The position numbers and the translations under genes were made by a program. From a virus (lineage: Duplodnaviria > Caudoviricetes), in the IMG/VR virus record IMGVR_UViG_3300043395_004688: a stretch of DNA of 64,000 nucleotides; one strand, 5' to 3'. Shown here one piece after another: positions 5,941-8,263 of the stretch. Position 1 is the first letter of the stretch, and each line of letters opens with the position of its first letter. The notes under the pieces are model-generated. The model saw nothing but the letters and a program-made list of their open reading frames with translations, did no database searches and was not told the DNA's origin.

Positions 5941-5966
5941 AGATACATAGTTTGAAGGAGCCACAA

Positions 5967-7163
5967 ATGTCTAGAATGCCCGCCCGCGATAAGCTTATTA
6001 AGAGCCGTGTTGCAATGTTGCTGAAGTATCCGTTCTGGGGGCCTTTGGCAGCTCGGCTCAAGCTTGAAGAAGTTGATTGGTGCAAGACCATTGCCACTGA
6101 CGGCCGCAAGTTTTACTATAACAAAGAGTTTGTCGAGAAGCTCAGCGACGGCGAAATGATTTTTGGTTTTGGCCACGAGCTTGGACACATTATTTTTGAT
6201 CACATGGTCCGCCGAGGAGACCGTGAACCTCAAATTTGGAACATGGCCGGTGACTATGTTATCAATAACATGCTGGTCCGTGAAGGTGTTGGCACACCAA
6301 TCACCACTGTACCTATTCTAGTTGATCGCAAGTATGAAGGCAAGACTGCCGACGAAGTTTATGACGACTTGATGGCCAATGCCACCGTTATTAAGATGAC
6401 GCTGGATGACCACCTTGATGCTGATGGCAGTGGTGACGGTGACAGCGACAGTGACGGCGAAGGCAACGGCAAGCCCAAGTTCAAGAAGCTTACCGAAGAA
6501 GAGCGCAAGGCTCTGCGTGACGAGTGGCGCGAAGCTGTTATCCAAGCCGCAAAGAATGCTGGCGCAGGTAATACGCCGGCCGCAATTCAGCGCCTAGTTA
6601 AGGATATTACTGCGCCTGTTATGGATCTGCGTGATCTGTTGCGTATTCAGTTTAGCGGCTCTGTTAAGAGTGACTACACCTGGATGCGTCCTAACCGCAA
6701 AGGTTGGCATACTGGTGCAGTTCTTCCGGGTCAGTTGCCTGGCGAGGAACTGGACATTGTAGTGGCACTTGATGCTTCAGGTTCCATTGGTGAAGACATG
6801 CTGATGGACTTTTTGGGTATGGTACAGGGTTCGCTGGATCAATTTACCAGCTACAAGGTTCGTGTTGTTACCTTTGACACTACTGTTTACAACGAAGACG
6901 AGTTCACTGCGGAAGATGGTCGTAGCATGGGCGAATACGAAGTTACCGGTGGCGGTGGTACAAGCTTTGAATGTGTGTGGCAGTGGATGAAGGACAATGA
7001 AATCCAACCGCACCAATTGGTCATGTTCACAGACGGATATCCGTTTGGTTCGTGGGGCGATCCTGACTACTGCGACACGCTGTTTGTGGTTCATGGTAGC
7101 AAGGACATCACTGCTCCGTTTGGTATCACTGCTAACTATGTGCCTGCCAATCGCAGGCATTAA
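5967..7163 (+). CDS. HExxH metallopeptidase-like + vWA domain protein (DUF2201-type)
   Basis: IATDG, GHELGHII (HExxH), acidic D/G linker, MIDAS LDASGS, GGGTSF, FTDGY; SD AAGGAG before ATG 5967. Confidence 0.9.
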   Translation: MSRMPARDKLIKSRVAMLLKYPFWGPLAARLKLEEVDWCKTIATDGRKFYYNKEFVEKLSDGEMIFGFGHELGHIIFDHMVRRGDREPQIWNMAGDYVINNMLVREGVGTPITTVPILVDRKYEGKTADEVYDDLMANATVIKMTLDDHLDADGSGDGDSDSDGEGNGKPKFKKLTEEERKALRDEWREAVIQAAKNAGAGNTPAAIQRLVKDITAPVMDLRDLLRIQFSGSVKSDYTWMRPNRKGWHTGAVLPGQLPGEELDIVVALDASGSIGEDMLMDFLGMVQGSLDQFTSYKVRVVTFDTTVYNEDEFTAEDGRSMGEYEVTGGGGTSFECVWQWMKDNEIQPHQLVMFTDGYPFGSWGDPDYCDTLFVVHGSKDITAPFGITANYVPANRRH

Positions 7164-7164
7164 A

Positions 7165-7375
7165 CCAGAAGGACGTTCAGCTTAATCAGCTGATACTGTG
7201 ACCCGCAGGATGAGAAGTGGTGTGATAACCACGGGTGGTTCCAGTCTAACCTAACTGGCGCTGGCGATGCGAGAATCCTCCCTGGTTGGGAAGCGGGTGG
7301 AAGGCATGCGTGATGGTGTTGGGAGTAACCTAGCGCCTGATGTGCTACAATTACCGCCGCAGGGAGGAAGCACTT
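7165..7375 (+). ncRNA. Putative structured non-coding RNA with a C/D-type kink-turn
   Basis: Helices TCAGCT/AGCTGA, ACCC/GGGT, GTGGT/ACCAC, CCAGT/ACTGG; 9-bp TCCTCCCTG(7276-84)/CAGGGAGGA(7360-68) closing a nested arm rich in G-U pairs. Confidence 0.7.
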
Positions 7376-7382
7376 AGTTCGC

Positions 7383-7405
7383 TAAGTAAGGTAGAGTACC
7401 TTACT
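7383..7405 (+). promoter_or_regulatory. Late promoter TAAGTA overlapped by a perfect 9-bp hairpin abutting the radical SAM start codon
   Basis: TAAGTA 7383-88; AGTAAGGTA-GAG-TACCTTACT 7385-7405; ATG 7406. Confidence 0.7.
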
Positions 7406-8263
7406 ATGATAGAACTAGAATACGCTGAGGTAACCTGGTTTTTAAATGGTTACTGCAAATTCCAATGCTCCTACTGCCCATCACTCTTTAAAAGTGGTGA
7501 GTTGAGCTTTTCAGTTGACCAGTATCTATCTGTCATTGAAAAATTGCAAAGCACAAGATACCAACACCACCCAAAAATATATTGGAAGCTAGGCGGCGGT
7601 GAACCTTTACATTATCCGCATCTGAGTACATTGTTAAAAAAAATAAAAGAACGACCATCATTTGTTAGACTTGATACCAGTGGTGACGATACTTGGTTTT
7701 CTTTGTACAGCGTTTTAAATTTCATTGACAAGGTAAAACTTACATACCATCCCTGGCAAAATGATGATGTGTTTGGCTTTGCACTTGAGCAATGCCAAGA
7801 AAAAAATATAGGGGTTTCAATTGTTATTCCTTTAACGCCCGGAAAGATTTACGAAGCCAAAGAAAAAGCACAGCACTATAAAGACCTAGGATATGTGTGC
7901 AGTGAGCAAATACTCTACGAAGAAGACGGTCGATTATATCAAGGATATAGCCAAGTAGATGAGAATAGAATTTATGGTCGCCCAGACGATTATGTTAGTG
8001 TTCCAGTGGTTCCAGTGTATACAGACCTAAGTGTACCTAATCAAGCAGATCCTGTTTACACGGGAAAGCCATGCTATGCAGGAGTAGACTGGTTGACTAT
8101 TAATCCTCGCGGCTTTGCATCATATAGTCAATGCGGTGGCAGAAGCGAACACTACAATGTATTTGATCCACAATGGCAACCACCTAGCAGTCATTTTGCT
8201 TGTACCGTAAACCAATGTAGAAACGAACAAGATCGTAGAAAAATTAGAATTGTTACCGAGTAG
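7406..8263 (+). CDS. Radical SAM protein with C-terminal SPASM/twitch-like Cys cluster
   Basis: CKFQCSYC (CxxxCxxC), GGGEPL; C-terminal KPCYAG...INPRG...SQC...CTVNQC. Confidence 0.9.
   Translation: MIELEYAEVTWFLNGYCKFQCSYCPSLFKSGELSFSVDQYLSVIEKLQSTRYQHHPKIYWKLGGGEPLHYPHLSTLLKKIKERPSFVRLDTSGDDTWFSLYSVLNFIDKVKLTYHPWQNDDVFGFALEQCQEKNIGVSIVIPLTPGKIYEAKEKAQHYKDLGYVCSEQILYEEDGRLYQGYSQVDENRIYGRPDDYVSVPVVPVYTDLSVPNQADPVYTGKPCYAGVDWLTINPRGFASYSQCGGRSEHYNVFDPQWQPPSSHFACTVNQCRNEQDRRKIRIVTE

Follow-up and report, generated by a model that had tools for sequence, protein, structure and literature searches.

A structured RNA family in freshwater jumbo phages

The window analyzed here is a 64,000-nucleotide (nt) stretch of DNA from the Caudoviricetes virus record IMGVR_UViG_3300043395_004688 in IMG/VR, which is 177.7 kb long and is estimated to be 53% complete. 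The + strand of the window contains a structured RNA gene at 7172–7376, and this is the only copy in the record. It is one member of a large structured RNA family that matches no Rfam model and is found in uncultured freshwater jumbo phages. The RNA lies in a 242-nt gap between two genes on the same strand. The upstream gene (5952–7163) encodes a protein with DUF2201_N metallopeptidase-like and vWA-like domains (Pfam PF13203, 4e-38; PF09967, 6e-18). The downstream gene (7406–8263) encodes a radical SAM protein with a weak PF04055 match; its specificity is unassigned, and none of the NCBIfam models matched it at its cut-off. The original prediction, made from the sequence of the window, placed a structured RNA of ~200 nt with a box C/D-type kink-turn (k-turn) in this gap. 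The helices it listed are present in the sequence, and the comparative evidence for the RNA is strong because these helices covary in relatives.

The G+C content of the gap is 0.53–0.56 compared to 0.36–0.46 in the downstream radical SAM gene. The + strand of the gap was scanned for promoter-like and terminator-like sites, and none were found, which agrees with the earlier view that this GC-rich gap is not a terminator. A coding role for the element was considered and rejected. The open reading frames within it are trivial, encoding only 36–40 aa, and the relatives do not use the extension of the radical SAM frame that begins at 7340. Translation of this extension had been raised as a counterargument to an RNA gene, and it was not borne out: 33 of 33 viral radical SAM relatives align from residue 1 at the ATG at 7406.

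Relatives of the element were first collected from loci fetched via both flanking proteins, where blastn located it at 76–96% identity. In some of these loci the element follows the vWA gene, and in nine it follows the radical SAM gene and lies between tRNA genes. An alignment of 9 sequences (A1) already contained 15 compensatory pairs and was used to build a covariance model, R1. Of two sequence-pattern scans of IMG/VR, one yielded 81 contigs and the other at least 120. Every one of the 145 IMG/VR loci fetched in this way matched R1, as did the window, with scores of 48–247 bits, and the window match spans 7169–7376 (217 bits, E = 3e-67). These matches comprise 118 distinct sequences. The carrier contigs are up to 524 kb in length. 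Three genomes of 342–353 kb (95–100% complete, one with terminal repeats) have one copy of the RNA each, and the 524-kb record has two. The two copies in the latter record (G001; 524,565 bp) are located at 119581–119795 (-) and 424192–424396 (+), on opposite strands and in separate tRNA arrays. No other record has two copies, and this one is either a chimeric assembly or a very large genome in which the arrays are duplicated.

The family was compared to Rfam 15, whose families include tRNA, tmRNA, RNase P, 6S, SRP, YrlA, GOLLD, ROOL, T-box, SAM-I, and the known ribozymes. A permissive search of 7 of the related loci gave only noise overlapping the element, consisting of tmRNA_permuted at 18–23 bits (cut-off 47) and sX4 at 28.6 bits (cut-off 70). 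The cmscan of the window itself, proposed along with the original prediction, returned no match overlapping the element between 6900 and 7700 even at E ≤ 10. Two pattern scans of the bacterial and archaeal species-representative genomes detected nothing, and R1 found nothing in E. coli O157 Sakai. R1 also did not match five contigs of distant phages with vWA proteins 46–51% identical to that of the window, a result that is uninformative because these contigs are only 17–46% complete. A description of the RNA family was not found in full-text literature searches.

The conserved fold and its k-turn arm

The single-sequence fold of the element only mildly beats shuffled sequences (z = -2.0 on the + strand and -1.8 on the - strand), and a z-score this modest means that the sequence alone would not settle whether the structure is real. 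The structure was assembled from the originally predicted helices, RNAalifold, and a mutual-information scan, and it was scored on A4, a structure-blind MAFFT alignment of 75 sequences that are <96% identical. Standard pairs occupy 92.9% of the A4 cells compared to 79.0% in shuffled alignments and 37–47% when the partners are slid. Both sides change in 38 of the 58 pairs, and any of the five measures was reached by 0 of 500 shuffles. The frequent G•U pairs would be A•C pairs on the opposite strand, which identifies the + strand RNA as the selected molecule. Invariant columns number 56, and another 53 are nearly so; together they make up about half of the ~205 consensus positions, and most are located in the junction strands.

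The 5' domain consists of five hairpins, P1, P2, P3, P4, and P4a. P1 (TCAGCT/AGCTGA; 7177–7193) has both-side changes in five of six pairs. P2 (CUGU/GCAG; 7196–7208) presents the conserved loop GACCC, pairs in 99.3% of cells, and covaries in three of four pairs. It is followed by the J2/3 strand GAUGAGAA (7209–7216), which is nearly invariant in A4; in divergent members it and the 5' tail vary jointly. A possible 3-bp pairing of these two strands (CGU/AUG changing to CAU/AUG) fits some variants and not others. All five pairs of P3 (GTGGT/ACCAC; 7217–7232) covary. The J3/4 strand GGGUGGU (7233–7239) then leads to P4 (CCAGU/ACUGG; 7241–7258), which has a conserved ACC in its loop and four of six pairs covarying. 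P4a (CGC/GCG; 7259–7271) has a 7-nt loop and pairs in 100% of cells; at its inner pair, 68 sequences have CG and seven have UA.

In this covariation model, the 5' domain is locked by a kissing loop between P1 and P3 and by a pseudoknot between the post-P3 strand and the P4 loop, both of which covary. The kissing-loop positions in the window are 7183–7188 and 7222–7227, where the P1 loop AUCA (7185–7188) meets the P3 loop UGAU (7223–7226). The AUCA/UGAU pairing of the window is replaced by GUC/GAC, UAACG/CGUUA, or GUUA/UGAC in other members, and at the kissing pair in columns 20–66, 47 sequences have GC and 23 have AU. In the pseudoknot, G7234, G7235, and U7236 pair with A7249, C7250, and C7251, and the U-A pair becomes C-G in three members (L158, L167, and L186). 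The original list of 5' hairpins named helices that hold up, and it missed P2 (CTGT/GCAG) and the kissing loop. Its proposed ACCC/GGGT pairing did not survive the comparison; ACCC belongs to the P2 loop, and the GGU covaries instead with the ACC of the 7246–7253 loop. Seven members (L086, L087, L204, L206, L210, L211, and L229) carry an extra structured insertion of ~30–70 nt between the GGGUGGU strand and P4, a second expandable site in addition to the tip of the k-turn arm.

The 3' part is a long bent arm composed of P5, P6, and then the k-turn with its variable tip. P5 is the predicted 9-bp long-range helix (7276–7284/7360–7368), and it is well supported by covariation in six of seven pairs and pairing in 98.7% of cells. 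The 5' strand of P6 (7293–7300) has its partner within 7351–7358, and at the pair in columns 134–215, 60 sequences have CG, 11 have UA, and four have AU. The register of the predicted GGTGG/TTACC helix is ambiguous among relatives: single changes in L087 and L224 favor GGUGG/UUACC, and L086 and L126 argue against it. The RNA ends in a 3' tail (7369–7376) with an AGCA that is invariant in A4.

The k-turn arm (7303–7346) contains a C stem (GGCATG/TGTGCT; 7303–7308/7341–7346), a 3-nt bulge (7309–7311), an NC stem (7315–7323/7329–7337), and a loop (7324–7328). The window sequence has the features of the motif, a canonical helix and a 3-nt bulge followed by tandem G•A and A•G pairs that open the second helix. 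Its core is the CGU bulge and then G7312•A7340, A7313•G7339, and U7314•U7338, just as predicted. The arms of 109 distinct, parsable members were classified. The 3-nt bulge with G•A and A•G pairs is kept in 75, and the third pair is U•U in 68 of these 75. Watson-Crick pairs (e.g. GA/UC) replace the G•A pairs in 22 members that keep the bulge and an otherwise almost identical arm, and the remaining 12 have other forms including a plain GNRA-capped hairpin. The 75 k-turn members use 23 different C stems, every one fully paired, and the C-stem and NC-stem pairs covary in A4. The arm tip varies freely in sequence and length, and the arm spans from ~27 to >70 nt.

The bulge, the tandem G•A/A•G pairs, the U•U at the third position, and the covarying flanking helices are all shared with box C/D-type k-turns. 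The differences are that the motif here is peripheral in a larger RNA, that a bulged Watson-Crick helix can replace it, and that the pair adjacent to the bulge is mostly G•U (66 of 75). Judged from the alignment, the C/D-type k-turn motif is real but peripheral. Its replacement by Watson-Crick pairs in 22 of 109 members is best explained if the k-turn is a hinge that would orient a dispensable peripheral arm rather than a functional site or protein-binding core. Near-identical k-turn arms are also found on clearly different 5' domains that have different kissing-loop types (L188 and L212 compared to L108, L109, and others), which suggests that arms may have been exchanged by recombination between family members.

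tRNA arrays as the usual home of the RNA

The usual home of the RNA family is the phage tRNA array, where it is encoded on the tRNA strand. The homologue search suggested with the original prediction recovered relatives that mostly keep the helices and the k-turn, and it placed them at an unforeseen site. Same-strand tRNAs lie within 1 kb of the RNA at 133 of 145 loci. The tRNAs in these loci total 1872 on the strand of the RNA and none on the opposite strand. In 56 of 56 distinct cases with an abutting upstream tRNA, the tRNA has an encoded CCA, and the GAACGUU of the RNA starts 0–3 nt later. Ten different tRNA species occupy this position. On the other side, the next tRNA starts 2–10 nt past the invariant AGCA in 38 cases. 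The genome with terminal repeats has the order tRNA-Tyr, RNA, tRNA-Cys.

The protein genes that flank the RNA in the window are rarely its neighbors. A vWA gene is nearby at only four of 145 loci, and a link of the family to the AAA/vWA operon named in the original prediction is not supported. A radical SAM gene is nearby at 13 of 145 loci, and in 11 of the 13 it is upstream of the RNA. The window's gene order, with the RNA directly upstream of radical SAM, is shared only with L121, the contig of the close relative L002. ARAGORN found no tRNA or tmRNA in the window. The record that contains it has a visible tRNA array, ~128 kb away, and a permuted tmRNA; both share the strand of the RNA and lie within ~116–130 kb of it, and this distance identifies the window copy as relocated. 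The copies in the window and in L002 are relocated from the array into a protein-coding operon with their structure intact. In its place among phage tRNA genes on the same strand, the family resembles T4 rnaC/rnaD, GOLLD, and ROOL, and the window copy is the exception.

Several observations concern the arrays themselves. The array in the window's record is at the contig end (43–2305), and the permuted (two-piece type) tmRNA is at G000:C1:14419-14776 (-), outside the window, with the tag ANDNYYSEDLRLAA. The style of this tag may hint at the host lineage. The radical SAM gene lies inside the tRNA array, between tRNA genes, in L053, L054, L060, L066, and their relatives, a placement that hints at a radical SAM protein that may act on tRNA or another RNA. 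At 776–867 in L053, 1947–2038 in L054, and 342–433 in L060, ARAGORN predicts a tRNA-Ile gene with anticodon TAT whose length of 92 nt is unusual. The arrays of these three loci also have several gaps of 140–1000 nt between tRNAs that lack long open reading frames and may hide further RNA genes.

Weak evidence for expression comes from RNA libraries. At least 12 metatranscriptome runs, mostly from freshwater and drawn from several studies, contain 44–61% of the sampled 31-mers of a typical member. One riverine RNA library contains an 80-nt contig of a relative that is deeper than the neighboring vWA fragment. Few RNA-library contigs mapped to the window itself, and their support is likewise weak.

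Two features of the window lie outside the family. Two local hairpins occupy 7373–7403 (+) between the RNA and the radical SAM start. Both are perfect, CUUAG-UUCG-CUAAG followed by UAAGGUA-GAG-UACCUUA, with no T-run after them. The second stops 2 nt short of the ATG and covers AAGG, a possible ribosome-binding site. These hairpins were seen in the window only and are not conserved along with the RNA family. The gathering-threshold Rfam search of the whole window had a sole match, away from the element. This is a full-length Polynucleobacter-1 RNA (RF01718) at 50486–50631 (+) that scores 85.9 bits (cut-off 37). The function of this motif, which here resides within a jumbo-phage genome, is unknown.

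A probable stable RNA released from tRNA transcripts and the alternatives

The best explanation for these data, to which we assign a probability of roughly 0.7, is a structured RNA of phage tRNA arrays that is released by tRNA processing and acts as a stable trans-acting RNA, with the k-turn as a hinge and the window copy relocated. The RNA would be transcribed together with the array tRNAs and released from the transcript by the tRNA-processing nucleases of the host. An endonuclease cut after the CCA of the upstream tRNA would set the 5' end, and the RNase P cut of the next tRNA would set the 3' end. The released RNA would accumulate as a stable species and act in trans. Its target would probably be translation or tRNA metabolism during infection, and it may act alone or with a protein partner.

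Phage RNAs with the same layout provide a precedent. The species 1 and 2 RNAs of T4 (rnaC and rnaD) are small and stable, their function is unknown, and their genes lie in the phage tRNA cluster on the tRNA strand. In the annotated record, 1 nt separates rnaD from tRNA-Arg, and rnaC follows after another 6 nt, abutting as in the family described here. The T4 RNAs differ in being shorter (119 and 139 nt) and show no homology in sequence or structure; the best R1 score in the T4 tRNA region with the filters off is 6.6 bits. An RNA cut from the spacer/trailer of a tRNA operon by tRNA processing is also known in bacteria, 3'ETS-leuZ of E. coli. It is likewise a non-tRNA RNA released from a tRNA transcript, and it differs from the family in being a short sponge that acts by base pairing. 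GOLLD and ROOL resemble the family as structured RNAs of phages or prophages whose function is unknown and that often lie close to tRNA islands; GOLLD was first seen in lake metagenomes (PMC12286853). They are ~three to four times larger, assemble into 8- to 14-mer cages, and have unrelated helices and conserved strands. A Y RNA/Ro60 system was considered and rejected. TROVE genes are absent from five phage records (four 95–100% complete genomes and the window's record), the 5' and 3' ends of the RNA are not paired with each other in the covarying fold, and YrlA does not match.

Several points weigh against a stable RNA that is released by tRNA processing. Only about half of the distinct copies directly adjoin a tRNA, and protein genes precede some of the others. 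Like the window, 12 of the 145 loci show no tRNA nearby. The transcript support consists of assembled contigs from RNA libraries, which can contain DNA. The very high conservation of the junction strands would suit a core that is catalytic or binds a ligand just as well as one that binds protein. Searches of cultured phages by blastn with the window region and a consensus-like member, and by tblastn with the radical SAM protein, gave no match.

The alternative that survives best is a new ribozyme that self-cleaves at one boundary or acts on the adjoining tRNA precursor, for example by freeing the CCA end of the upstream tRNA. A catalytic RNA is consistent with the concentration of invariant and nearly invariant positions in the junction strands, with the compact fold held by a kissing loop, pseudoknot, and k-turn, and with the start of the RNA 0–3 nt after the CCA of ten tRNA species. 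No known ribozyme model in Rfam matches the element. The many copies without an abutting tRNA, including those that follow a protein gene or reside in a coding operon, make it unlikely that cleavage of an upstream tRNA is obligatory. Self-cleavage by a small ribozyme would also leave a cyclic phosphate on A76 of the tRNA and prevent its charging. We consider a ribozyme unlikely on this balance. The broader idea of a new catalytic or tRNA-handling RNA, either a protein-free hydrolytic ribozyme or a tRNA-binding chaperone, is a doubtful one in our estimate. If it were true, jumbo phages would carry the RNA in their arrays as a means to mature, protect, or sequester tRNAs without relying on the host.

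Assembly of the RNA into homo-oligomers without protein, as a smaller counterpart of the nanocages made by ROOL and GOLLD, is quite improbable. The niche of phages, tRNA islands, and lake metagenomes is common to all three, k-turns serve in RNA corner architecture, and the family has conserved loops and the short self-complementary stretches AACGUU and AAUU. Against it, the RNA is only ~205 nt long, the kissing loop has a covarying intramolecular partner, the palindromic 5' AACGUU is lost in divergent members, and the Rfam GOLLD and ROOL models match neither the window nor the seven related loci.

Regulation of the downstream radical SAM gene in cis, with the RNA as a leader or riboswitch, is one of the roles suggested originally; genomic context already largely refutes it, and we hold it to be very improbable. 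It was attractive in the window and L002, where the RNA is directly upstream of this gene, and in the window the hairpins at 7373–7403 cover the region just 5' of the start codon. Across the family, the few radical SAM genes that are nearby mostly precede the RNA, no riboswitch model matches, and most copies are followed by a tRNA within 2–10 nt, too short a spacing to accommodate an expression platform.

A box C/D-like guide RNA, or the suggested decoy that titrates an L7Ae-family k-turn-binding protein, is equally hard to credit: GUGAUG and CUGA do form a C/D-type k-turn with the favored U•U at 3b•3n, but it is in an internal arm rather than at the RNA ends, the C'/D' pair and a guide region are lacking, and about a fifth of the members have Watson-Crick pairs in place of the G•A pairs, with a plain hairpin in a few others. 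Classification as a box C/D small RNA was rejected on the same topology, with the boxes inside the internal arm (7309–7342) of a 205-nt RNA and no second box pair. L7Ae (PF01248) and fibrillarin (PF01269) genes were not detected in the four genomes that are 95–100% complete or in the window's partial record, and control genomes gave matches; this check covered phage records, with Nop5 and the host genome outside it.

Large structured RNAs whose job is unknown are rare, and new biochemistry has tended to emerge from each class discovered. This family is widespread, its structure is exceptionally well supported by covariation, and its size of ~205 nt is suited to chemical probing, crystallography, or cryo-EM. 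The otherwise near-identical arms with either G•A or Watson-Crick pairs are a natural k-turn experiment. The RNA is a compact companion to the puzzle posed by GOLLD, ROOL, and the T4 species 1 and 2 RNAs. Its place in jumbo-phage arrays, which also encode tmRNA and tRNAs by the dozen, suggests that the takeover of translation by large phages has an unexplored side.
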